Shown: positions 2,602-56,150 of the stretch, piece by piece | Layout of the letters: the number at the start of each line of letters is the position of its first letter | Position numbering within the stretch: the first letter of the stretch is position 1 | Assembly (NCBI GenBank): GCA_000004695.1 | Contig: CM000153.2 | Coordinates: 320,001-384,000, forward strand | Direction of reading: 5' to 3' | Source: Dictyostelium discoideum | Taxonomy: Eukaryota | Length of the DNA stretch: 64,000 nucleotides | Program-made: the position numbers and the translations under genes | The notes under the pieces: generated by a model | What the model was told of the DNA's origin: nothing | The model's input: the letters and a program-made list of their open reading frames with translations, nothing else | Databases searched by the model: none

Positions 2602-3289
2602 TCTTTATTATATAATTTTTATTAATAAAATAAAAATTAAATGATTAGAAAAAAAAAAAAAAAAAAAAAATTGTTTTGAAAGGATTATTGAGAATTATTG
2701 GAAAAAAAAAAAATAATAAAAAATAAAATTAATAAAATTAATAAAAAAATCTTAGTAAACTAAGACTGGGGAAGTAAAAATAAAAAAAATAATTAAAATA
2801 AAAAAAAAAAAAAAACTTTTCGGCAATGAAAAAAAATTTCGCAGTTTCCTAGGATTTCAAAAAAAAAATCTTTTTAATGTTTCGTTTTTATAATCCCAAA
2901 AATAGATTTTTTCTTAAAATTACCAGTGCTGAGAACATATTTTTTTTTTTTTAATAATTAAATAAAATAAAATAAAATAAATTAGAATACTCAGTTTTCT
3001 ATATATTCCAATTTGAAATCAAATCAAATCATATCAAATGAAACCAATTTAAATTAATTTAAATCAAATAAAAATAGTGTCATACGTCAAAAAAATAAAA
3101 AAAAAAAAAAAAAATAAAAAAATAAATGCAAGATATCTTTTTTATTTATTTGTTTTTTTTTTTCATAATTAATTTTTGAAAGTTAAATTTTTAAAAATTG
3201 TTTTTTTTTTTATTTTTTTTTTTTTTATTTTTTTTTTTTTATAATTTTCACTTGGGATTTATATTTTTTTTTTTTATTTTCCACACACA

Positions 3290-3761: not shown

Positions 3762-4700
3762 GTGATGGTAATAATAATAAAAGTAATAATAGTGGCTTCA
3801 GTGAATTAGTTCTTAAATTGAAGAAATTAAAGGTATTCTAGAATTAATGAAATCAATTACTTCGACAACAACAGAAACAACAAAAACAATTACCACTCAA
3901 GAAAGTACTGATTCTTTATGAAATCACTCAAGTACTTTTGATCATTGATGGTTTGGATCAATTGGACACAAGAAGAATCGTACTCATACTTTGGATTAGT
4001 TATCAATTACATTACTAATTAAATTGATGGTTCAAGATTAGATGGTCATCATACTCAAAGTTGTAGATGTGTGCACCAACTGAAAATCATTGTCGCACCA
4101 ATGAAAGTTAAAGATGGTCATAGTTTAATATTGGGTAAATTTGAAGAATTCCTTAACAAATTGGATGAATCTGCAATCAATAATCAAATGTCAATAATAA
4201 TAATAATATTAGAAATTTAGTATGAAATGAAAGAGAGAAAAATTCATTCAATGCACCAATTTGTTTAATTAAAAACAAAGATATCTTGGAGCATATTAAA
4301 GATTTCTGTGATATAGTTTCTCCAACTCATATCCTTTCAAATCAACCAACCAAATGTTAAATAAAGCACAAATTAAAGATAGTTGTAAACAAAACACGTG
4401 ATGGCTCAAAAATTGCCTGCTGGTAAAAATTCAATCATTCATATTTTCAAAGCATCTAATGGTTCAGAGTTGTTATAAAATTGGTTTGTCATTCGAATTG
4501 GATCTCTTGTTTCACCTTGGCAAGTCAAGTTGGGATGATACAGTGATAGTTTGGGATTTCATGGTAATACTGTTGTTACCATTGCACATATCAAGTGGGA
4601 TCAGTTCTTGGTGTCGACTACCAAGCGCTTGTCAATATCTCTGTGGTCTTGTTATTCAAGTCTGTAGTTTAAAAAATACATCAATATTAGAAAAATAATA
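3540..4700 (+). pseudogene. Decayed coding relic with a WD40-like segment (...GKSSWDDTVIVWDF...) and many in-frame stops.
   Basis: Higher GC than the surroundings and a C/A-rich strand bias. ORF 4459..4698 contains a WD-repeat-like 'SWDDTVIVWD' and 'HISSGISS' (compare GHTSSVTSV), but the flanking frames are full of stops. The segment is present upstream of copy A and absent from the equivalent place upstream of copy B. Confidence 0.35.
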
Positions 4701-4811: not shown

Positions 4812-7800
4812 TTATTGAAGCAATATTGATATTAGAATAAAAATAGTAGCAACTAGTTTGGAGAAAACTGAATGTAAACTAATATCACTGCTTAACATTT
4901 CATCGTCAGAATAAGTTTGGGTATAAACGGGCTCAAATTGGAAATTTGAATTTTGGTGGCTTCTAAGTTGTATTTCAATTGGATCATTATCAAAATATAT
5001 TTCCAATTTTTCATGTATTGAAAATTGGCAATTAATATTTTGATTTATTATTTCAGGATAACAATCGATTGTTTCCGAAAGGGTACGATTCTCTTTATAT
5101 AAACTATTTGCTTTAAAAGTACCACGTACAATTACATTAAAGAAACCATCCCCATTCATTTTAATATTTCCATCCTTAATTTTTGATATTGAATTAATTA
5201 TTGGTTTTTTTGGATAATAGAATGGGATTGGATTTATTATAAACTTTCTTCTATTTTCAAAAGTAACAAATACACTAAAATTACCAGATCCATATGCAAA
5301 TGGTGCATTTATTTGATATCTATAGTTTTGATCTGATTTTGATAAAAATTGTTTTTTTGCAGAATGAATTGTACCATTATCAAATTGAAATTGGAAATCG
5401 ATATTATCAAAACCATTGTATTTATCCATTAAGAAATCAGCACTTACTAAAATAGTATTATTACTGAAAGTTGAAAATTGGGCCAAACTTCCATCAACTA
5501 TTACATTTGAAGGTAATGGTGGTTGAATAACTATTGTTTTTGAATCTTTTGTAAATGTAAAAATATTGTATTTGTTAAATATTGTTTTTGTATTAAATTG
5601 TTTTACAATTGTACCAATTTGAGAGAATTGAGAATCTTGATCAGTTTGTGGTTCATTTATATTGATAGATCCACCTAAACAATTACTACATGTAAATAAT
5701 AATTGGTCTTGGTTACTAGTAATCGTGAGATCTGGTACCTTAGTAAATGAATAATCATCAATATAAACATATACATGTGAAGCCTTATTCATAATTAAAC
5801 TAAGTCTAGAACTATCGAAATAGGTTATTTGATCGCTGGAAATAGAATTTTTACTATCATCTAGATAAAATTTATAATTTGACAAATTTGACATAAAGAC
5901 ACCCTCCATTGTTATAACATCATTTTGAATTGAATAGTTATAAATAATTGGACGGACTAAATAGTATATATTATGTTTTTTTGTTAGTGTTAATATGTTA
6001 AATGTTTTGTATGGTTCAAAAATAATAATTTTTGAATGTTTACAAATACATACAGTTTAATTCATTTGTTAAAGTTTCGATATGATAATCATTATTAAAT
6101 GAAAGTACATTTGTAGAATTTGCATTTAATGTGAATGAAATAATATTTGGTTCAATTAAAGTATAGTCTAAATCTATTCCATTTTTATTATTATATTTAA
6201 TACTTGTTATTTGAAAGAAATAAACTGGGAATGAAAGATGTAATTGTACCTTTTCTAGATTTTGGGTGACAGATGATATCCACTTTGATGTTGTATAACT
6301 AAATGGATTTAAATGAACCAATTTATCTTTAATATAAATTGAAAAATTACCATTACCATAGCCACTTGGAATACTGAAATTACCTTCTGTAAATACTCTA
6401 TTACTCAAAGTTTTATAATCCAATATACATATTGTACCATTTGAAAATTCTAATTTTCCTATAATATATGCTTGATTATTATACATTTTTGGAATAAAAC
6501 TGCCACTTATTGAAACTGTTGAGATAACATTAAATTCGAATATTTCATTGCCACTGAAACTAACATGATTAAAATCAGTTGGTAACTGTAATGCACTTGA
6601 TCTTTTATATGGATAAATAGGGGCTTCTATATAAATTTCACTATCATCATTCAAAGTGATATAAATATCACTAACTTCAATTGGAGATGAATCTACTACT
6701 GTATAATTATATAACAATCCTTTTGTATTTGCACCAATACAATTTTTACAATAGATGAAAATTGAATTAAAAAAACCAGATTCATGATCATATCTTGAAC
6801 TTAATACCATTTGTTGTTGTGGCTTTAAAATTGGATAGCTTTCAGATTTAATTCCGAAAAGAGAAATAAAAAAGTTATTGTCAACGTAACCTGTTGAGTT
6901 TACTACCAATGTTGTTGAGTTGAATGATGTTATCATCGGTGGTTTTATTTGATAACCACCGTAATAAAATGTATAATTTGATAATACATTTTTAAAAAAT
7001 ATACCTTTTACTGTAATAACATCACCATTATTTTCACAATTATTGATTACTGGCTCTAAAAGAAGTTTTTTAAATTGTACTTATTAGTATTTTATAGGTT
7101 TTTTTGATTATAAAAGTAGTAGTGGTAGGAAATATTAATTTTTTTAAAAACATAAATTATACATACTAATTGATAAATCTATAGTTTTATTACCATTTAC
7201 TGAAATTAAATTTGAAGAATTTTCATCCAATGTGTAACGTAAAATATTTGGTTCAATTAATGAATATTCAATTGGTGTTCTTTTATTATTTTTATATGGA
7301 CATACATATTTTGTTTTAATATAAACATCTACATTACAATCATTAATGGATGCATATTTTGAGGAAGTAAAGTTAAACTCTTGTCTTTCATCACATATAA
7401 AATAATAATCTCTAGACATTAGATCGGTACCACCAAAAATATTTGGACAAGAAATGTGTGGATTGGTATATGTTAATTTTAATTTATAATTATCATTATT
7501 TATACCCAATTTAAAACTTTCTGTATTTAAGTATCCAGTTGGAAATGAAAATTTCCCATATTCTTCAGCACCAGATTGACTGTTTGTAAAAGATAGATTT
7601 GAACAAATTGAAAAAAAGTGTTTATACTAATTGGTTTAAAAAATAAAAGTTAATAAATGTAAAATGTAATATTTTATAAAGTTTCATTTTACTTACATCA
7701 GGGTTATAATAGTCTGGAAAACTATAGTCAATATTTTTAAATTTTGATAAATCAAAAGAATAATAAGTTGAATTAAAAATACATGAGTTTAAAACAGATG

Positions 7801-7990
7801 TACCATTAAAATCATAATTATAATATAAATTATCTAAACTTGTAATATTAAATAATTTTAATGGTTCGGCCAACTGAATTTCAACATTACTTCCAGTTTG
7901 ATTAATTGAAGTATAGATAAACTGACTATTTAATTTTGTAATAAAAATTAAAAAAAAAATAGTTGATAATATAAAATTTGAAAATTTCAT
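4812..7990 (-). CDS. Secreted/GPI-type cell-surface glycoprotein with IPT/TIG-like repeats, family copy B (apparently intact). Four exons at approx 7687-7990, 7167-7579, 6054-7055 and 4812-5957.
   Basis: ORFs 7622..7990 (signal peptide MKFSNFILSTIFFLIFITKLNSQ), 7144..7509, 6040..6936 and 4812..5909. GTAAGT/GTATGT donors close each exon, and acceptors (ttttacaaacag|, cttttag|, ctatttag|) open the next. The C-terminus ends in a hydrophobic tail (SVFSKLVATIFILISILLQ) typical of a GPI-attachment signal. Confidence 0.75.
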
Positions 7991-8056
7991 TTTTTATTAT
8001 GTGCTATTTAATAAAATAAAAATATATTGAAAAAAAAAAAAAAAAAACTATTTATA

Positions 8057-8098
<42 letters not shown>

Positions 8099-8697
8099 AA
8101 ATTATCTAATTCTTATTGGAGAAAAAAAAAATTGGGCAGTCTTGAATGAAAATATCTTGAACATTTTTTTTCCTGAATTTTAAAGTTTAACCGAAAAGTT
8201 TTTTTTTCTTTTTATTTTTTTAATATATTTTTTTATTTTTTTTGTTCAATTTTCTTTAAAAGATTAAATTAAAGAAATCAAAGATGATTTTTTTTTTAAA
8301 AAAAACCTAATCACAAGAAAAAGATTGTAATTAGAATTAAAGTAATTAACTTCTTGAAAGCCATTTTTTTTTCTTTTTTTTTTTCTTTTTTTTTTTTTTC
8401 AAATAAGGAGAGCCTCTCAGAAAATAAAGAAAAAAAAAAAAAGGCGACAAACCCACCTTTGTCACACAAAATTAATTTTCAACAATTTTATTCCAAAATT
8501 AAACTCAAAAAAAAAAAAAAAAAATTTTTCAATTTGGTTATATTAAGGGTGGTTGGATGTAAAAATTTCAGAATTAAAGTGGTGAAAAGTAATTTTGTGC
8601 GGCACTGCGGGTTTGTCTCCTTTTTTTTTTTTTACTTTTATTTTTTTATTTTCTATAGGACTTCCCTTTCAATTTTCCGAAGTTTGAATTGAAAAAA

Positions 8698-8748
<51 letters not shown>

Positions 8749-8749
8749 T

Positions 8750-9064
8750 TCTAACACAAAAAATGCACACAGAAACAGTTATATAAAACATGTTTTCAAA
8801 TATTTATAGACTATATCAAAAAATAAGCATTGCATGTTTTACGAAAAAAAAGAGTATCCCATAAAGATTAAATCATTAATTTAATTCAATTGGTAATTAT
8901 TAAATAATTAGTTTATTTTCTATTATTAATTAATTATATATTCTAATGGTGATAAATTAATTAGTTAGCTTAAAATATAGATGGACAAGTTGCTAATAAA
9001 GGTCAATCTTCAGGTGTTTGTATGGAATCAAAGAGGTAAGCTCTATTGAATCAATAGAATTTTA

Positions 9065-9130
<66 letters not shown>
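8750..9130. repeat. Second copy of the roughly 400-bp intergenic repeat plus the (AAT)n microsatellite at 9066-9158.
   Basis: Alignable by eye with 3290-3720. The (AAT)n run is about 30 units. Confidence 0.7.
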
Positions 9131-9163
<33 letters not shown>

Positions 9164-9419
9164 TTAATTAAATAAATAAACAAAAAGAATAAATAAATAA
9201 AAACAATAAATAAAAAAAAAGATAATAAAATAAAACTACAATCTTAATTGAAAAAAAAAAAAAAAAAAAAAAAAAATAAATAAATAAAATAAAACTAGTT
9301 TTAATAAATCTAAAACTTTGTAAATATGTTTTGAAAAAAAAAAAAATATTTTATTTTATTGTTTAACTAAATTTGGTTTAAAATTCAAATAAAGAACTAT
9401 CTACTCTAAAAGAGAAACC

Positions 9420-10651: not shown

Positions 10652-10788
10652 GTTTGTTGGAAAAAAAGAAAAATGACAAGAAAAAAAAAAAAAAAAAAAA
10701 AATATTATTTGTTATTTTTTAAAAAAAAAAAAAATTTATTTTTGGGACCTGTAAATTTAAGAAAAATATCCTTTTTTCCAATCTAAAA

Positions 10789-10866
10789 AACCGTTTTTTT
10801 CTTGGGTTTGCAAAAAAAAGTTTCGGCAAACAATAATTTTGAAAACCCAAGAAAAAAACGGTTTTT
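10789..10866. promoter_or_regulatory. Perfect 24-bp inverted repeat (aaaaaccgtttttttcttgggttt ... aaacccaagaaaaaaacggttttt) in the divergent intergenic region between P1 on the minus strand and IPT copy C on the plus strand.
   Basis: Read directly from the sequence. The arms are separated by about 30 bp (gcaaaaaaaagtttcggcaaacaataattttgaa). The adjacent ...ggacctgtaaatttaagaaaaatatcc... motif recurs upstream of other family copies at 2800-2940 (reverse orientation) and 15760-15860. Confidence 0.5.
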
Positions 10867-11059
10867 TTTTTGTTTGCCAAAACTTTTTTTTTTTTTTTAT
10901 ATATTTTTAATCGAATTTTAGTTTTTTAATTAATTTTTTTTATTTTTTTTTTTTTTATAAATTAATTCTCACCAATCCTTTCAAAACAAATTTTTTTTTT
11001 TTTTTTTTTATTTATTAATTTTAATTTTTATTTCATTAATAAAAAGTATATAATAAACA

Positions 11060-14000
11060 ATGAATTATTCAAATTTAATAATATCAATAAATTTTTTGTT
11101 ATTATTTTTTATTACAACATTAAATAGTGAATCAATCTTTAAATCAATTTATCAAACTGGAAGTAATTTTGAAATTAAATTGACTCAACCATTATATTTA
11201 TTTAATATTACAAGTTTAGATAATTTATATTATGATTATGATTTTAATGGTACATCAGTTTTAAATTCATGTATTTTTAATTCAAATTATTTTTCTTTGA
11301 ATTTATCAAAATTAAAAAATGTTGATCATAGTTTTCCAGATCGTGACTCTATGACAAATATTGAGCACCTTTTTTCAATTTGTTCCGAACTGTCTTCCTA
11401 TAGCAGTCAATCTGGTTTTATTAAAAGTGAAAGAAAGGAATTTGTTGCAACTGGAGATTTAAATAAAGAAAGTTTTAAATTTGGTAGACTTGGTGTTGAT
11501 AATTATGCATTGAAATTAACATATTCCAGTAATAATTTGTTTTATTGTGAAAGATATGGTGGTACCACTAGAAATTATTATTTTCAATGTGATGAAAATC
11601 AAGAATTTAACTTTACTGCACCATCTGTAAATTTTTATGATTGTAATGTAGATGTTTATATTAAAACAAAATATGTATGTCCATATAAAAATACCAAAAA
11701 AACACCAATTAAATATTCATTAGTTCAACCAAATATTTTACGTTTTACAATGGATGAAAATTCTTCAATTTTAATTTCAGTAAATAATGGTAATGCAATT
11801 GAATCTTTACCACCAATCAGTATGTATAATTTATTTTTTTAAAAAAATTAATATTATTTCCTACCACTACTTTTATCTTAAACTATAAAATTCTAAATGT
11901 TCATTTTAATTTTTTTATAGAGCCAATAATCTATAGTTGTGAAAACAATGGTGGTGATATTATTACAGTAAATGGTTTATTTTTTGAAAATTTTTTATCA
12001 AATTATACATTAAATTTCGAACCGTTTCTGATAGACATATTTGATCCATCAGTAATAATATCATTCAATTCAACAACATTGGTAGTAAACTCTACAGGTT
12101 ATGTTGATAATTACTTAATTATTTCTTTCTTTTATTATCAATCTGAAAGATTTCCAATTTTAAAACCACAACAGCAAATGGAATTAAGTTCATGGTATGA
12201 TGATGATTTTGATATGCTGTACAGAATGTACAAATTGTATTGGTGCAAAAACAATAGGATTGCCATATACTTATACAATACCTTCATACTACCCATTCTC
12301 ATTTTACACTGAAAAAATCATTTTAAGTGGAATTTATTTAGAAGCCCCAATCTATCCATATAAAAGATCAAATGCATTACCGTTACCAACTAATTTTCAA
12401 AAAGTTAATATCAGTGGTAATGAAATATTCGAATTTAATGGTAATTCAATAGTATCAATAAGTGGCCGTTTTATTCCAAAAATATACGATAATCAAGCAT
12501 ATATTATAGGAAAATTAGAATTTTTAAATGGTACAATATGTATATTGGATTATAATACTTTGAATAATAGTGTATTAACACAAGGTAAATTCAATATTCC
12601 AAGTGGTTATGGTAATGGTAATTTTTCAATTTATATTAAAGATAAATTGGTTCATTCAAATGCATTTACTTATCAACCACCATCAAAGTGGATTTCATCA
12701 ATCACTCAAAATCAAGAAAAGGTACAATTACATCTTTCATTTCCATTTTCTTTATTACAAATAACAAGTATTAAATATAATGATAAAAATGGAAAAGATT
12801 TAGACTATACTTTAATTGAACCTAATATCATTTCATTGACATTAAATACATATTCTACAAATGTACTTTCATTTAATAATGATTATCATATCGAAACTTT
12901 AACAAATGGGTTAAACTGTAAGTAAATACTATCATACAAATTATTTAATTTTACATATAACACTAACAAAAAACATTTTATATTATTTAGTTCGTCCAAT
13001 TATTTATAGCTATTTTAGTAATTCAATTGAAAATGGTACGAATATAATAATGGAGGGTCTCTTTGTATCAAAATTGTCAAATTATAAATTTTATTTAGAT
13101 GATAGTAAAATTGCTGTTTCTGGTGACCAAGTAACCTATTAAACAATTCTCATATGTATATGTTTATAGTGACGATTATTCATATACAAGGGTACCAGAT
13201 CTCACAATTACAAGCGAGCAAGACCAACTATTGTTTACATGTAGTAATTGTTTAGGTGGATATATCAATATAAATGAACCAGAAAGTAATCAAGATTCTC
13301 AATTCTCTCAAATTGGTACAATTGTAAAACAATTTAATACAAATACAATTTTAAATAAATACAATGCTTTTACATTTACCAAAGACTCAAAAACAATATT
13401 TATACAACCACCATTACCTTCAAATGTAAAAATTGATGGAGGTTTAGCTCAATTTTCAACTTTCAGTAATAATAATATTTTAGTTAGTGGTGATTTTTTA
13501 TTGGATATATTCAATCGTTTTGATTATACAAATTTCCAACTTCAATTTGATAATGGTACAATTTATTCACCAAATAAACAGATTTTATCAAAATCAGATC
13601 AAAACTATGTTTATCAATTAAATATACCATTTGCATATGGATCTGGTAATTTTAGTGTATTTTCTACTCTAGAAAATGGTAGAAAGTTTATTATAAATTC
13701 AACTCCATTCAATTATCCAAAAACACCAATAATTAATTCAATATCAAAAATTAAAGATGGAAATCTTAAAATAATTGGAGATGGTTTCTTTGATGTAGTT
13801 GTTTTTGGTTCTTTTAAAACAACATTTAAAAATATAACAACTGGTCTTTTTTCAGATACAATCGAATGTCATTCTCAAATAACTCAACATCAAAACATTA
13901 TTTGCCAATTTACAATGAATCAAAACTTTAGTTTAGTATATTCTCAAGATACTCCGATTACAATACAAATTAAAAGCTCCAAATACTCACAGCACCAATT

Positions 14001-14220
14001 TGAACCAGTTTATACCCAAACTTTTTTCAATAATTCAAATCCAAATTCTAATTCAAATTCTAATTCAAATTCAAATTCAAATTCAAATTCAAATTCAAAT
14101 TCAAATTCAAATTCAAATTCAAATTCAATTTTAATTTCAAATTCAAATTCAAATTCAAATTTAGTTTTCTCCAAATTTGTAGCAACTATTTTTATTTTAA
14201 TATCAATATTGTTTCAATAA
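11060..14220 (+). pseudogene. IPT/TIG-like glycoprotein family copy C. It is disrupted by a frameshift in exon 3 near 12200-12240 and by a deletion with a stop in exon 4 near 13140.
   Basis: ORFs 12079..12312 and 12197..12925 overlap in different frames at the homologous position, where the other copies read ...DNDFNLLFIDCTNCIGAKTIGLP.... Exon 4 has lost ...FDSSRISLIMNQ... and reads VTY*. Intron 1 is absent: ORF 11060..11842 reads straight through exon 1 into exon 2. The C-terminus carries an (AATTCA)n expansion that encodes (NS)18. Confidence 0.7.
14036..14150 (+). repeat. Hexanucleotide (AATTCA)n microsatellite inside copy C exon 4, encoding an NSNSNS... run.
   Basis: Direct reading. It is absent at the same place in copies B and E. 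Confidence 0.85.
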
Positions 14221-14569: not shown

Positions 14570-14752
14570 TTATTATTTTCCATTTCTTTTCTTTTCTTTT
14601 TCTTTTCTTTTTCTTTTTTTTTTTTCTTTTTCTTTTCTTTTCTTTTCCTTTCTATTACTATTACTATTACTATTACTATTACTATTACTATTACTATTAC
14701 TATTACTATTACTATTACTATTACTATTACTATTACTATTACTATTACTTCG
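14570..14752. repeat. Compound microsatellite: (CTTTT/CTTTTT)n followed by about 20 units of (ATTACT)n.
   Basis: Direct reading: attactattactattact... over 14652-14752. Confidence 0.9.
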
Positions 14753-15120: not shown

Positions 15121-15700
15121 TTAAAATAATATATTTTTAGTTTTTGAATATAAAGCATCTTTACAATCAATGGAACCATAGGATTCAGTACTTGCAATTC
15201 CAGTACAATCTTTTGATGGGTAGGTTGTAATAGTGTAATTTTGAAAAGGATCATAATTGATTTTAATATTTGTACCACATACTGATGAACATTTACCTAT
15301 TGTAACTATTTTATCATCGACACAAGGACCTTTTACAAATTTGAAAGAATAATATTTTGAAATTAATGTTGAACAAGTTATTTCCCCATCTATTACTTGA
15401 TTATTATATCCATCATAGCAATTAAAATTAACAATAAATGGATAATTTGTGTTTTCATAGTAACCTTGATTTTGGCAACTATAATCTGTAAAGAATGAAA
15501 TTTTAAAAAGTTCATCGTACACCTTTAAAATCTTTGCATTTTAATACAAAATATGCCACATTCATTCAAGTTTAATACACCATTTTCACAATTCTTTGCT
15601 TGTAATTCAAATACATCATATTGTGATGATACAACTAAAAAAATATTAAATAAAAATAAGATTAAAAAAATAAATTTCATATTTGTTGGTAAAAACATTA
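15121..15700 (-). pseudogene. Truncated, frameshifted duplicate (P2) of the ponticulin-like gene P1.
   Basis: Bases 15125-15480 are almost base-identical to 10085-10440. The N-terminal part (MKFIFLILFLFNIFLVVSSQYDVFELQAKNCENGVLNLNECGIFC...) runs into a stop. The Ser-rich linker and GPI tail are missing. Confidence 0.7.
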
Positions 15701-16079
15701 ACGTATTAAAAAATAAAAAAAAAAAAAATATTATATATTATTTTTAAAAAAATATATTCTCGGCACTGGTAAATTTAAGAAAAAATCTCTTTTTGGAATT
15801 ATAAAAACGAAACACGTTAAAAAGTTTTTTTTTTTTGAAATACCAAGAAAAATAAAAAGTTTTTTTTTTTTTTTTATTTTAATTATTTTTTTATTATTTG
15901 TTTTTCCAATTTTTCTAGAACCTTGGTTTACAAAGATTTTTTATTATTTTTTTTAATTTTTTTAATTTTTTTTTTTTTTTTTTTTTTGCAGATTCCCGAT
16001 CATCTATGATAATCCTTTCCAAAAAATTGTTTTTTTATTTTTTTTTTTTTTTTTAAATTTTAATAAATTTTATTTTAAA

Positions 16080-18328
16080 AATCAATTTGTTCCAAACTGC
16101 CTTCCTATAGCAGTCAATCTGTTATTATATATAAAAAGTCATTTTTTACAACTGGAGATTTAAATAAAGAAAAATTTGAATTTGGTAGATTTGGTGTTGA
16201 TAATTATGCAAGTCCTGGTTGTTCAACTAGAAATTATTATTTTCAATGTGATGAAAATCAAGAATTAACTTTACTGCACCATCCAACGTAAATTATTTTG
16301 ATTGTAATGTAGATGTTTATATTAAAACAAAACATGTATGTCCATATAAAAATACCAAAAAAACACCAATTAAATATTCATTAATTCAACCAAATGTTTT
16401 AGTTTTACATTGGATGAAAATTCTTCAAATTTAATTTCAGTAAATAATGGTAATGTAATTGAATCTTTACTTCAATATACCAAGTGGACATGGTAAAGGT
16501 ACTTTTTCAATTTATATTAAAGATAAATTGGTTCATTCGAATTCATTAAATTATCAACCCCATCAAAGTGGATATTATCAATCACTCAAAATCAAGAAAA
16601 GGTACAATTACATCTTTCATTTCCATTTTCTTTATTACAAATAACAAGTATTAAATATAATGATAAAAATGGAAAAGATTTAGACTATACTTTAATTGAA
16701 CCAAATATCATTTCATTCACATTAAATACATATTCTACAAATGTACTTTCATTTAATAATGATTATCATATTGAAGCTTTAACAAATGGATTAAACTGTA
16801 AGTATTTGTAAACATTCAAAAAATATAATTTTATTCATACAAAATATTTAATTTTATATTTAACACTAACAAAACATTTTATATTATTTAGTTCGCCCAA
16901 TTATTTATAGATATTCAATTGAAAATGGTGCTAAAATAACAATGGAGGGTCTCTTTGTATCAAATTTGTCAAATTATAAATGGAAAAGATTTAGACTATA
17001 CTTTAATTGAAACAAATATTATTTCATTCACATTAAATACATATTCTACAAATGTTCTTTCATTTAATGATGATTATCATATTGAAACATTAACAAATTC
17101 ATTAAACTGTATGTATATTTTAAAGATTAAAAACTAATCAAAATTTTTTAAATTCATAACTCACCAAAAAACATTTTATATTATTTAGATCGTCCAATTA
17201 TTTATAGTTATTCAATTCAAAATGGTATTATAACAATGGAGGGTCTCTTTGTATCAAAATTATCAAATTATAAATTTTATCTAGATTTTAGTAAAATTGC
17301 TGTTCCCAGCGATCAAGTAACCTATTTCGATAGTTCAAGAATCAGTTTAATTATGAATCAGGTTTCACATGTATATGTTTATAGTGATGAGAATTTATTT
17401 ACCATGGTACCAGATATCACGATTACAAGCCAGCAAGACCAATTATTGTTTACATGTAGTAATTGTTTAGGTGGATATATCAATATAAATGATCCAGAAA
17501 GTAATCAAGAATCTCAATTCTCTCAAATCGGTACAATTGTAAAACAATTTAATACAAATACAATTTTTAATAAATACAATGCTTTTACATTTACAAAAGA
17601 TTCAAAAACTATAGTTATACAACCGCCACTACCTTCAAATGTAAAAGTTGATGGAAGTTTAACTTAATTTTCAACATTCAGCAATAATACTATTTTATTT
17701 AGTGGTGATTTCTTATTGCATAAATACAATGGTTTAAATTATACTGATTTCCAATTTCAATATGATAATGGTACAATTTATTCGGCAAAAAAACAAATTT
17801 TATCAAAATCTGATCAAAACTATAAATATCAAATAAATGCACCATTTGCATATGGATCTGGTAATTTTAGTGTATTTGTTACTTTTGAAAATGGTAGAAA
17901 GGTTATAACAAATTCAATTCCATTCAATTATCCCAAAAAACCAATAATTAATTCAATATCAAAAATTATGGATCAATCGACATTATACAATAAGTGGCGA
18001 TGGTTTCTTTGATGTTATAGTAATTCCTTCTTTTAAATCAAACATTTATTCAGAAACAATCGAATGTCATCCTGAAATAATAAATCAAAATATTATTTAC
18101 CAGTTTGAAATGAAACAAGAATCCTCGGTAGATTCTCAATATCCAATTGAAATAAAAATTGAAAGCCTTGAATACTCACCTTTCCAATTTGAACCATTAT
18201 ATACCCAAACCTTTTTTTATGACCCAAATTCTGATTCAGAAATTTTAAAGAGTGATATTAGTTTACATTCAGTTTTCTCCAAATTATTTGCATCTCTTTT
18301 TGTTCTAATATCAAAATTGTTTCAATAA
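16080..18328 (+). pseudogene. IPT/TIG-like glycoprotein family copy D. It is heavily fragmented by deletions, an internal duplication and frameshifts.
   Basis: Short ORFs 16459..16644, 16955..17137, 17236..17667, 17716..18012 and 18110..18328 each match pieces of exons 2-4 of the intact copies. The block 16955-17137 repeats the exon-3 tail already present at 16640-16800. Confidence 0.7.
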
Positions 18329-18449: not shown

Positions 18450-19091
18450 TTAAAACAATAAATTTATTAATAAAAATGTTAATAATATAAATTTGTGGAT
18501 TGTAATTAATTTAGAAGATATTGATCCATTTGATTCTATATTTGGAGTTGATTTTAAACAGGATAAATATTGATCGTTATTAGTTTTTGATAATAATTGA
18601 TTTTTACAATCAATTGATCCATAGAATTCAGTACTTCCAATTCCAGTACAATCATTCGAAAGGTAGGTTGTAATAATGTAATTTTGAAAAGGATCGTAAT
18701 TGATTATAATATTTTTGCCACATACTGATGAACATATACCCAAAAAAATTAATTTATCATCGACACAAGGACCCTCAACAAATTTGAAAGAATAATATTT
18801 TGAAATTAATGTTGAACAAATTATTTCCCCATATCTACCAATAGTATTAATTTCATTACTGCAATTAAATGGAATATATGGACGAGGGTCTTGATAGCAA
18901 ATAGCATCAGTATAGACTTTGATTGATTTTACGTTCTCGATAAATAAATATTCATTACAAAATTTACCACATTCTTGAAGAGTTAATGTGGTATTTTCAC
19001 AGCCCTTTGATTGTAATTTAAATACATCAAATTCTGATGATACAATTAAAAAAATATTAAATAAAAATAGGAATAATAAAATATATTTCAT
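18450..19091 (-). CDS. Small secreted Cys-rich, GPI-type glycoprotein, ponticulin-like. Copy P3.
   Basis: ORF is 213 aa with signal peptide MKYILLFLFLFNIFLIVSSE. The Cys framework is conserved with P1 (…CSTLISKYYSFKFVEGPCVDDK…CSSVCG…DCTGIGSTEFYGSIDCK…). The C-terminal hydrophobic tail is FILLTFLLINLLF. Confidence 0.7.
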   Translation of the reverse strand: MKYILLFLFLFNIFLIVSSEFDVFKLQSKGCENTTLTLQECGKFCNEYLFIENVKSIKVYTDAICYQDPRPYIPFNCSNEINTIGRYGEIICSTLISKYYSFKFVEGPCVDDKLIFLGICSSVCGKNIIINYDPFQNYIITTYLSNDCTGIGSTEFYGSIDCKNQLLSKTNNDQYLSCLKSTPNIESNGSISSKLITIHKFILLTFLLINLLF

Positions 19092-19769
19092 GTTATAAAA
19101 TAAAAGAAAAAAAAAATAAAAGAAAAAAAAAAATAAAAGAAAAAAAAAAATAAAAAAAAATAAAAATTAAATAAAAGAAAAAAAAAAAAATATATTTTCA
19201 AATAAAATCGATTACAAATTCTATTAACCCATCTTTTTTTTTTTCGAAATGAAAAAGATTTTTTTTCTTTAAAATCAAAGAATTATAGCGAATTTTTTTT
19301 TTTCGTATTTTTGCAATGTTAAAAAAAAAAAAAGAAAATGTCAAAAATCAATCACAAATTAATTTTTTTTTAATTATTTTTTTTTTATATGTTAAAAAAT
19401 AAACTGATACCATTTGACACTTTCAAAAGCCAAAAAAACGGAGGATTTTTTACCAAAGATTTTTTTTTTTTTTCCAATTATTATTTTTTTTTTAATTTTC
19501 TTAATTAAAATTTTTAGAAAACTAAGATTTTTTTTGTAAAAAGCCGATTTTTATCCCAAAAAAATTTTAGAAAACAAAGATTTTTTTATTTTTTTTCTAA
19601 TAATATAAACCAGAATAATTCATTTAAAAGTCAGAAAAGAAAAAAAAAGTTATTTAATATATTATTATTTTTTTTTTTTTGTCCATAAATATTTTTTTTT
19701 ATTTTTTTATTTTTTTTTCCTTAACAATTATTTAATTATTTTATAAATAAAAAGATTATTTAATAAAAA

Positions 19770-22700
19770 ATGAATTTTCCAAAATTTATATTATTAAATA
19801 TTTTATTATTAATTTTTGCCTCGACATTAAATAGTCAATCAATCTTTAGTTCAATTAATCAAAATGGAAGTAATGTTGAAATTAAATTAGTTCAACCATT
19901 ATATTTATTTAATATAACAAATTTAGATAATTTATATAATGATTATGATTTAAATGGTACATCTGTTTTAAATTCATGTATTTTTAATACAACATATTTT
20001 TCTTTGGATTTATCAATATTAAAAAATATTGACTATATTTTTAAAGATTCCAATAGCAAAGTAAGTAATTGAAACATAATAAAAATTTTAAACATTACAT
20101 TTTATTAACTTTTATTTTTGAAAACTAAATAGTATCAACACCTTTTTTCAATTTGTTCCCGAACTAAACTATATTCTGCTCAGTCTGTTATGCTTAATGA
20201 AAATGGGCAATCTTTTACAACTGGAAATTTGAATACAGAGAAATTTGAAATCGGTAGGTTCGGTTTAAATAATTATTCATTAAAGTTAACCTATACCAAT
20301 CCTGCATTCTCCTTATGTTCTAATAGTGGTTCAACTAGAAATTATTATTTTCAATGTGATGAAAATCTAGAATTTAACATCACATCCCCAAACTCGAAAA
20401 ATGTAAATTATTATGATTGTAATGTAGATGTTACTATCGCAACAAAATATGTATGTCCATATAAAAATATCAAAAAATCATCAATTAAATATTCATTAAT
20501 TCAACCAAATATTTTACGTTTTACATTGGATGAAAATTCTTCAAATTTAATTTCAATAAATAATGGAAAAGTATATGAAGTTTTACCAATTAGTATGTAT
20601 AATTTATATTTTTTAAAAAAAAAAATTAAAATTTCCTACCACCAATTTTATCTTCCACTACTACTACTAATAATACTACTTTTATCAACAATAAAAAATT
20701 CTAATACACTCATTTCATTAAACTTTTACATTTTATAGAGCCAATAATCCATAGTTGTGAAAATAATGGTGATATTATTACAGTAAATGGTTTATTTTTT
20801 AAAAATATATTATCAAATTATACATTTGGTTTCGATGGTCAATTAACAATGAACCGTTCGAATATAATATCATTCAATTCAACAACATTGGTATTAAACT
20901 CTACAGGTTATGTTGACAATAACTTTTTTATTTCACTCTTTGAAAATAAATCTGATAGCTATCCAATTTTAAAACCACAACAGCAAATGGTATTAAGTTC
21001 ATGGTATGATTATAGTTTTCGTAAGGAACGTCTTAACATTGATTGTACAAATTGCCTTGGTGCAAAAACAATAGGAATACAAAATATCTATACAAAATAT
21101 GCACATTCAATAAAAATACCCCCTGAAGATATCAATTTTAGTGGAATCTATTTAGAAGCCCCTATTTATCCTTTTAAAAGATCAAATTTATTGCCATTAC
21201 CAACTAATATTATAGGAGTTAATGATAATAAAATATTTCAATTTAATGGAATTTCAATAGTTTCAATAGCTGGTTATTTTATTCCAAAAATGTATGATAA
21301 TCAAGCATATATTACAGGAAAATTAGAATTTTCAAATGGTACATTATGTATATTGGATTATTATACTTTGGATAGTAATGTATTAACACAAGGTAAATTC
21401 AATATTCCAAGTGGTTATGGTAATGGTAATTTTTCAATTTATACTAAAGATAAGTTGGTTCATTCAAATTCATTTACTTATCAACCACCATCAAAGTGGA
21501 TATCATCAATCACACAAAATTTAGAAAAGGTACAATTACATCTTTCATTTCCATTTTCTTTTTTTCCAATTACAAGTATTAAATATAATGATAAAAATGG
21601 AAAAGATTTAGACTATACTTTAATTGAACCAAATATCATTTCATTCACATTAAATACATATTCTACAAATGTACTTTCATTTAATGATGATTATCATAAC
21701 GAAACTTTAACAAATGGATTAAACTGTATGTATAGATTAAAAATTATAATTTAAATTTAAAATTTTTAATTTTATAACTCACCAAAAAACATTTTATATT
21801 ATTTAGATCGTCCAATTATTTATAGTTATTCAATTCAAAATGGTATTATAACAATGGAGGGTTTCTTTATATCAAATTTATCAACTTATAAATTTTATCT
21901 TGATAATAGTAAAAATGCTGTTTCCAGCGATCAAATAACCTATTTCGATAGTTCAAGAATCAGTTTAATTATGAATCAGGCTTTATATGTATATGTTTAT
22001 TGTGATGACTATTCGTTTACAATGGTACCAGATCTCACAATTACAAGCCAGCAAGACCAATTATTGTTTACATGTAGTAATTGTTTAGGTGGATCTATCA
22101 ATATAAATGAACCCCAGAGTAATCAAGATTCTCAATTCTCACAAATCGGTACAATTGTAAAACAATTTAATACAAATACAATTGTTAATAAATACAATAT
22201 TTATACATTTACTAAAGATTCAAAAACAATAATTATTCAACCACCTTTACCTACAAATTTAATATTTGGTGCAAGTTTACCTAAATTTTCAACATTCAGT
22301 AATAATACTATAATAATTAGTTCTGATTTCTTATTGGATAAATATAATGGTTTTGATTACACAGATTTCCAACTTCAATTTGATAATGGTACAATATATC
22401 CAGTAAAAAAACAACTTTTATCAAAATCAGCTCAAAACTATAAATATCAAATAAATGCACCATTTGCATTTGGATCTGGTAATTTTTGTACATTTATTAC
22501 TTTTGAAAATAATAGAAAGTTAATAAATTCAATTCCATTCTATTATCCAGCAAGACCAATAATTAATTCAATATCAAAAATTAAGATTGGTGGTTTTAAA
22601 ATAAGTGGTGATGGTTTCTTTAATGTATCTTTAATTGCTTCTTTTAAAAAAAATTTGGTAAATACAACCACTGGTGTTATAAAAAATGTTATCCGATGTG

Positions 22701-55760: not shown

Positions 55761-56150
55761 TATGAATAAAAATTATAAAAATAAATAAATTATAAATTAT
55801 TCAAAAATTAAAAATATGGATTTCCTTTTTTAAATTTAAAAATAAAAAAAATAAAAAAAATATTAACTTCGTGTTTAACATTGTAGTTAAAATAATAATT
55901 TTATGGTGGCTTTTAACATGATATCGCAATTTCAAGGCATTTGGATTTGTTGTCTAAAATCCAACCTAATGATTGCTAATCAATAACATCCAAACTGTTT
56001 AATTTAAAATTTATACTAATGGGGTTTCGTGTGAAAATAAATAAAAAAAATAAAAAAATGAATAAATAAAAAGCACACTATTTTTTTTTTTAATATTTTT
56101 AAAATAAATTCACAGCTGCTATAAAACCCCATTTGTATAAAATTTATTAA

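Follow-up and report, generated by a model that had tools for sequence, protein, structure and literature searches.

The long inverted repeat in the DNA between P1 and copy C, two divergently transcribed genes of Dictyostelium discoideum, is real and far beyond chance. We think that it is probably a young, lineage-specific, templated inverted duplication within a duplicated promoter and not a conserved palindromic element, because its left arms are absent from the related promoters and because paired arms differ at only 2 of 53 positions, against a background divergence of about 10%. A preliminary description of this DNA had seen in the repeat a conserved candidate transcription-factor site or bidirectional promoter core; the repeat itself is there, its conservation is not, and what persists across the gene family is a short core.

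Results

The P1/C Locus and Its Gene Family

The window (the whole 64,000-nucleotide stretch that was analyzed, from chromosome 4 of D. discoideum AX4) has a G+C content of 15–25%. Its first 24 kb are a tandem cluster of five copies, A to E, of an uncharacterized secreted-protein family (Table 1), whose members are roughly 950–990 aa long and carry a signal peptide and a hydrophobic C-terminus. Three small Cys-rich, P1-like genes stand head-to-head with copies C, D, and E, and a Pfam search with exons of P1 and of the family returned no domains. Paralogs of P1 are DDB_G0283235, DDB_G0283241, and DDB_G0283101; the product of the minus-strand open reading frame at 18450–19091 is identical to D. 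discoideum AX4 DDB_G0283241. An independent, near-identical chromosome-level assembly (L003) matches window positions 8432–29107 at 99.83%, contains the inverted repeat as well, and annotates a 953-aa gene at the position of copy C.

Table 1. Coordinates of genes, promoter blocks, and repeat arms within the window
Feature	Position	Strand	Remarks
Family copy A	ATG 2601	−	
Block 4 of copy A (TCTTAGTAAACTAAGA)	2750–2765		Outside the homologous range 2801–2935
Homologous upstream region of copy A	2801–2935	−	Y box 2816–2828, X box 2840–2859, block 1 2882–2923 (all reverse)
Family copy B	ATG 7990	−	
P1	9911–10651 (ATG 10651)	−	246 aa, Cys-rich, signal peptide, hydrophobic C-terminus, no Pfam family
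P1/C intergenic region	10652–11059		408 bp between divergent P1 (−) and copy C (+)
Block 1 (GGACCTGTAAATTTAAGAAAAATATCC...AATCTAAAAAA; shared form GTAAATTTAAGAAAAAATCTaTTTTTGGaATTATAAAAACG)	10746–10790	+	Nearest the P1 gene
Arm a, left arm of repeat 1	10785–10815		Reverse complement of X box; copy C only; within inserted segment
Arm b, left arm of repeat 2	10812–10833		Reverse complement of Y box; inside loop of repeat 1; ancestral CGG kept
Arm a′, ancestral X box (TTTTGAAAACCCAAGAAAAAAACGG)	10837–10867	+	Includes family core CCAAGA
Arm b′, ancestral Y box (TTGTTTGCCAAAAC + T-run)	10870–10891	+	
Family copy C	11060–14220 (ATG 11060)	+	Roughly 950-aa secreted or GPI-type protein without known domain
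P1′ (DDB_G0283235)	15121–15680	−	Truncated
Homologous region between P1′ and copy D	15762–15860	+	Block 1 15769–15809, X box 15836–15853, Y box deleted
Family copy D		+	Without ATG and first exon
Two motif copies (AACTAAGATTTT and AACAAAGATTTT)	19520–19584	+	Upstream of diverged copy E
Family copy E, diverged	ATG 19770	+	

The structure of the cluster varies between the window and other assemblies labeled D. discoideum (L001, L002, L006, and L007), and the "orthologous" copies in those assemblies share only 85–93% identity with those of the window. Most of the equivalent of copy E beside pyruvate kinase is missing from L001, and in L002 one more family copy separates the P1-C pair from B. On the immediate upstream side of the window, at 9127–11878 of L007, a further P1-like gene faces a 5′-truncated family copy. 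In L004, another cluster on this chromosome at a distance of about 100 kb, a gene at 6772–9269 with only faint integrase-domain matches lies between the P1-like gene DDB_G0283101 and its family partner, and parts the partner from the motif-bearing portion of the old shared promoter; this gene is probably a transposon. Downstream of copy C, at 14649–14749, a hexanucleotide microsatellite reads (IT)n in one frame, and near-identical (IT)n arrays occur at several positions in L001 and L002. Within copy C itself, at 11340–11400, the first-intron donor that is GGTAAGTAT in A and in L002 reads GACAAATAT, and the frame is open through the former intron (a 260-aa open reading frame at 11060–11842), which suggests either a possible loss of the intron by read-through or an inactivated copy.

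Two Interleaved Inverted Repeats

The 24-mer described earlier, aaaaaccgtttttttcttgggttt at 10786–10809, does have its exact reverse complement at 10843–10866, and its upstream neighbor ggacctgtaaatttaagaaaaatatcc is also present as described. With a repeat finder, the pair extends to arms of 31 nt (a and a′; repeat 1) that lie 21 nt apart and are 97% complementary, with one mismatch and 25 nt of perfect pairing. A second inverted repeat, overlooked in the preliminary description, joins arms b and b′ over 22 nt, again with one mismatch. The four arms follow one another as a-b-a′-b′, an interleaved rather than a nested arrangement that would be pseudoknot-like if single-stranded; folded as single-stranded DNA, the region reaches −33.3 kcal/mol (z = −6.4).

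Such structures far exceed what chance would give. The 19-mer AAACCCAAGAAAAAAACGG is found in the 64 kb at the two arm sites only; 0.10 occurrences in the 64 kb would be expected with up to three mismatches allowed. When the window was searched for G/C-containing inverted repeats (arms at least 16 nt long, at most one mismatch, loops no longer than 100 nt), three were returned, two of them here; 25 block shuffles of the window gave a mean of 0.04 such repeats, the longest with an arm of 17 nt.

The sole other repeat of this class in the window joins 56010–56027 to 56124–56141 (18 nt, loop 96; TTTATACTAATGGGGTTT). Related loci hold further examples. A long hairpin at 20247–20328 of L002, with arms of about 22–36 nt, contains CCCAAAAAGATTTT and precedes a match to the second exon of the family by about 230 bp; it may represent an independent inverted-repeat formation. 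A set of long inverted repeats with arms of 25–43 nt clusters at 4694–5454 of L001, within a 1.7-kb, relatively G+C-rich intergenic region of the P1 family, and may be an inserted element. Interleaved repeats with arms of 15–35 nt occur at 13613–13722 of L007. Since similar long and partly interleaved repeats recur in L001, L002, and L007, the process that forms them seems to be a recurrent one.

A long and stable hairpin might be transcribed and act as RNA, for example as a young miRNA-like precursor for the Dictyostelium Dicer-like enzyme. Inverted duplications are a frequent source of new miRNA genes, and at the level of E-values the hairpin does resemble generic miRNA-precursor models (mir-576, 35 bits, E = 5e-6). 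We nevertheless regard an RNA role as very unlikely: all of the Rfam matches fall far under their gathering scores (35 versus 99 bits) and are spread over many unrelated hairpin families, as they would be for any long hairpin; the stem is mostly A/T homopolymer; the hairpin is situated upstream of each of the two start codons, at 134–275 bp, and is probably in neither transcript; and a literature search by the arm sequences gave no match. Across the whole window, Rfam returned no family at gathering thresholds and a tRNA scan found none, while a scan for bacterial-type promoters and terminators was uninformative, as expected for a eukaryote.

Promoter Blocks Shared among Homologous Copies

Five homologous promoters could be aligned: those of copies C, A (in reverse), and D in the window, and those at 3226–3652 of L002 and 18005–18449 of L001, both isolate assemblies labeled D. 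discoideum. The whole intergenic region of roughly 400 bp is homologous across the five, and its ancestral order is block 1, X box, Y box, block 4, block 5. The X box has the consensus GAAAwCCCAAGAAA..CG (shared form TTTTGAAAtCCCAAGAAAAA..CG), with counterparts at 18164–18225 of L001 and 3503–3435 of L002 in addition to those of A and D. The ancestral Y box, TTGCCGAAA (aTTGCCGAAA), is common to A, L001, and L002. Block 4 (AGTCTTAGTTTACaAAGAT) is a perfect palindrome in copy A, TCTTAG-N4-CTAAGA; block 5 (CCAATCCTTTCAAAACAA; shared form ATAATCCTTTCAAAACAA) lies at about −88 in the P1/C region. From copy C the 26-nt palindromic block 4 has gone, by a deletion near 10919. A block 4 with TCTTAG-N4-C(T/A)AAGA is kept in A, L001, and L002 and, in degenerate form, in D, and is lost in C alone.

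These alignments bear directly on what had been proposed. The related sequence upstream of copy A was found, in reverse, as described. That near copy D is likewise present, but the gene downstream of it is truncated, the ATG and first exon of copy D having been lost. The P1′-D pair as a whole (15121–16100) looks decayed: copy D is short of about 345 bp, ATG and exon 1 included, and P1′ comes to an early end (…KTKNILF) and can be read across a frame change only with an intron-like skip, with the upstream blocks still in place. What the copies share is the right arm of the repeat together with what follows it downstream; the left arm exists in C alone, so that the inverted repeat as such is not conserved. 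The "fixed distance" from the ATG merely mirrors the homology of the entire region, and a bidirectional promoter core finds no support, each gene having its own proximal T-run region.

The Left Arms Are a Derived Insertion

Relative to the other promoters, the left halves a and b form one contiguous insertion of about 45 nt in copy C (about 10790–10836). The segment is missing from A, D, L001, and L002, and only the right halves are ancestral. The most informative comparison is with the closest relative of the P1-C promoter, that of L002, where the P1 coding sequence is 96% identical and the gene order is the same; this isolate is about 10% diverged and its cluster structurally variable, and its orthology to C is taken from similarity and gene order. 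A pairwise alignment of the two promoters gives 90.4% identity at aligned bases and shows the whole of a+b as a single gap, with X, Y, and block 4 retained in L002. Loss of a+b from L002 and, independently, from each paralog is formally possible and unparsimonious.

The divergence between paired arms, 3.8%, is under half of the 9.6% that separates C from L002, and amounts to one substitution per arm pair since the event. Arm b keeps the CGG found at Y in all of the paralogs, and b′ has since changed to CCA; arm a′ keeps the ancestral TTTTGAAA, and arm a has changed. The polarity of these two differences fits copying from a′b′. All of the insertion junctions lie in A- or T-runs. In L002, an imperfect palindrome is centered on the X box, with a score of 25.5 as compared with 13.6 ± 2.7 (maximum 21) in shuffles; no significant imperfect palindrome was found at the same place in A, D, L001, or B.

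We infer that replication template switching most likely gave rise to a+b once this lineage had parted from that of L002. The P1-C pair of the AX4 lineage would have gained the reverse complement of X and then that of Y: a nascent strand ending in an A-run would have re-primed on the T-run beside X and copied X backwards, and the same backward copying would then have taken place at Y, either within one complex event or in two successive ones. Microhomology between A/T homopolymers at each junction would favor such switching, as would a pre-existing imperfect palindrome of the kind visible in L002. Three features expected of a template switch are found here: the new sequence is the reverse complement of DNA within about 100 bp; the state is derived, being absent from L002 and from the outgroup copies A, D, and L001; and L002 shows an imperfect palindrome at this place, with A/T runs at all of the junctions in copy C. 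One feature departs from the simplest scheme. A single four-point switch that copied a′b′ would yield b-a, and the order observed is a-b; the arrangement a-b-a′-b′ therefore calls for two switches, or for a prior b-like sequence that was later "corrected." At the position of b, copy B has the weakly similar CTTTTCGGTTAAAC, and given this resemblance part of arm b may be ancestral.

Three other origins were considered: that X+Y was duplicated once in inverted orientation, that a tandem duplication was later inverted, and that a paralog acted as donor in gene conversion. We rejected them because each either does not give the order a-b-a′-b′ or has no source copy.

Being a discrete insertion, about 45 nt long and able to form a hairpin, the segment also invites comparison with a MITE-like small mobile element, or with a patch converted from another paralog, and the cluster does contain probable transposon insertions, such as the element with faint integrase matches in L004. 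Like MITEs, the segment is short and able to fold back. We consider either source extremely unlikely, however: the segment is the reverse complement of immediately adjacent DNA and not foreign, it is single-copy in the window and absent from five related loci outside this stretch, no target-site duplication is seen at its junctions, and no paralog has Y then X in the arrangement that a converted patch would need. Without multiple copies or a target-site duplication, we rejected classification of the segment as a MITE.

Conservation of the Long Motif Does Not Exceed That of Its Flanks

Over the five promoters that could be aligned, the X box averages 73% pairwise identity and block 1 (GTAAATTTAAG...) averages 70%, as against 74–81% for the A/T flanks, so that neither the X box nor block 1 is more conserved than flanking non-coding sequence, as a phylogenetic footprint would be. 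In the closest pairs, both are far less conserved than the adjacent coding sequence (91–96%). Columns containing G/C show 56% pairwise identity in the intergenic region as compared with 80% in the P1 coding sequence. The 24–31-nt inverted repeat does not occur in any of the other family members or related isolates examined. The preliminary description had allowed that its inference of function would fall if the motif proved to be just a part of the duplicated unit, with identity no higher than that of its flanks; for the long motif, this is largely what we find. Its claim of a regulatory site divides: the long motif belongs to the duplicated unit and is conserved no better than its surroundings, and a short core within it does persist in diverged copies.

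These figures weigh against the idea that the repeat is a functional palindromic operator, or bidirectional core, bound by a dimeric transcription factor and held by selection across the family. Such an operator would suit the placement of the repeat near the middle of the 408-bp divergent region (its center is at about 10826, the midpoint of the region at 10855), the presence within it of the family-enriched core CCAAGA in both orientations, and the existence in ancestral promoters of a true small palindrome, block 4, built from the same half-site. It does not suit the absence of the left arm from all paralogs and from L002, the distance of 52–58 bp between arm centers, which is far for a dimer site, the conservation of the long motif at a level no better than its flanks, or the persistence of the same blocks beside the truncated copy D. 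On balance we judge an operator of this sort to be improbable, and prefer to see in the repeat the young, templated duplication described above.

A Short Core Recurs in Family Promoters

The promoters of E, B, L004, L005 (D. citrinum), and L006 (D. cf. discoideum) align with that of C in short patches only. These diverged promoters nonetheless carry ...AAAC(C/T)AAGATTTTTT..., or its complement, repeatedly. The core CYAAGA (extended form AAACYAAGATTTT) is about 10-fold enriched in family promoters, the diverged ones included. In an unbiased count of 6-mers over 15 family promoters, CTAAGA and CCAAGA came out on top, each observed 10 times where 0.64 would be expected. The X-box core C[CT]A[AG]GA (CYARGA) occurs in 12 of the 15, at −150 to −320, and its background, measured over 29 kb of further non-coding DNA with matching G+C content, is 0.12 per 450 bp, or 8% of windows of that size. 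With at most one mismatch, AACYAAGATTTT has 18 matches in about 190 kb, 13 of them in family intergenic regions that total about 7 kb.

These counts are to be read with some care, as the enrichment was found and tested on overlapping data, the 15 promoters have a common ancestry, and among them L004 alone, itself on this chromosome, is a truly separate locus. When discovery was strictly confined to the window and testing to the other loci, only CAAGAA was clearly replicated (6 observed versus 1.64 expected, p = 0.007); CCAAGA and CTAAGA, each present in two of the five window promoters, were not singled out by this procedure. Family-wide sampling was limited, because a protein homology search yielded few members: it returned short fragments only (DDB_G0283237 and ACTFI* hypotheticals) and not the 950–990-aa proteins annotated in the loci that we fetched. 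Beyond the cluster in the window, sampling reached the L004 cluster and no farther unlinked members.

It could be argued that neutral residue of duplication accounts for all that is seen here, and for the short core as well, with the enrichment of CYAAGA arising from shared ancestry and internal tandem duplication. Descent of all 15 promoters from one ancestor, the location of the motif inside local direct repeats in several of them (E, L004, and L006), the merely moderate replication in the strict split, and the quick decay of G/C positions would all be in keeping with this. Two observations speak against it: the core is kept at similar positions where the flanks no longer align (E, L004, L005, and L006), and 13 of the 18 matches to AACYAAGATTTT are concentrated in the family's intergenic DNA. 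We regard a wholly neutral account as rather unlikely. We consider the chances roughly balanced that the short core CYAAGA is a real cis-element and candidate transcription-factor site. A literature search by gene identifier, arm sequence, and CCAAGA brought up nothing relevant and no binding or expression data.

Discussion

Template switching is known to create perfect hairpins in one step (PMC8794818, PMC7954356), and switching by DNA polymerase expands inverted repeats in yeast promoters, with GRE2 as the case study (PMC13100816). The P1/C repeat resembles the GRE2 case in that an imperfect inverted repeat near a promoter appears to have been homogenized or expanded in one lineage, in that it overlaps candidate transcription-factor sites, and in that it was detected by comparing close relatives. 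It differs in that its two repeats are interleaved (a-b-a′-b′) and not nested, so that more than one switch is needed, and in its setting, the divergent and very A/T-rich promoter of genes in a tandem family. With the quasipalindrome mutations described in PMC8794818 and PMC7954356 it shares the reverse-complement copy of an adjacent sequence, a near-perfect stem where the ancestor has none, and microhomology at the junctions; unlike them, it has an order of segments that departs from the simplest four-point event.

In copy C, the X-box core is now present in both orientations, about 50 bp apart. In Ripley's quasipalindrome model, template-switch mutations reportedly produce perfect hairpins; an event of this kind at P1/C would have doubled a candidate cis-element in the opposite orientation. 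Copy C is also the only promoter of its clade that lacks block 4 and the only one with an inverted copy of the X box. It is tempting to speculate that the switch re-created, in one step, a pair of inverted half-sites that compensates for the loss of block 4 and re-wires the P1/C promoter; reading the coincidence in this way is a long shot, in our opinion, and there is no indication of selection on the hairpin itself.

Two known types of Dictyostelium element invite comparison with the X box. The DUSE consensus is [A/T]CCCA[C/T]AA, which ACCCAAGA does not match. Like a DUSE, the X box is a short CCC-containing box in A/T-rich upstream DNA; three consecutive Cs are preserved in the Group 4 DUSE, whose distance upstream of the transcription start, or of a TGTG box (AAATGTG), is about 60 nt (PMC7919456). 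Among X-box paralogs, by contrast, the CCC is not kept (TCCT, TACC, TCTC), and AAATGTG is not present some 60 nt downstream of the X box. A DUSE-dependent or Class I non-coding RNA gene was considered for this region and rejected, as the features by which PMC7919456 defines such genes are lacking and no Rfam family reaches its gathering score. The second comparison is with GATA-type sites. GtaC binds GATA-like sites by ChIP-seq and GATC in vitro (PMC4506546), and the family motif AAACYAAGATTTT has a GAT core; the X box of copy C, however, reads CCAAGAAAA, without GAT, and the motif has GATT where GtaC prefers GATA or GATC. The GAT in AAGATTTT is a weak pointer to GATA-type factors as predicted binders.

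In kind, the feature is ordinary: it is real and well explained, and what is gained is a corrected reading together with a short candidate motif. At the P1/C locus, it would be a mistake to take the striking "perfect palindrome" of the promoter for a regulatory device that has been conserved. Instead, the locus would provide a eukaryotic example, beyond those in yeast and primates, of template switching that builds long, interleaved promoter hairpins, and the extreme A/T homopolymer content of the Dictyostelium genome probably eases such switches. The family of secreted or GPI-type proteins encoded here is uncharacterized and fast-evolving, and a by-product of our analysis is the hypothesis that the motif AAACYAAGATTTT, with its core CYAAGA, may control these genes and their P1 partners.
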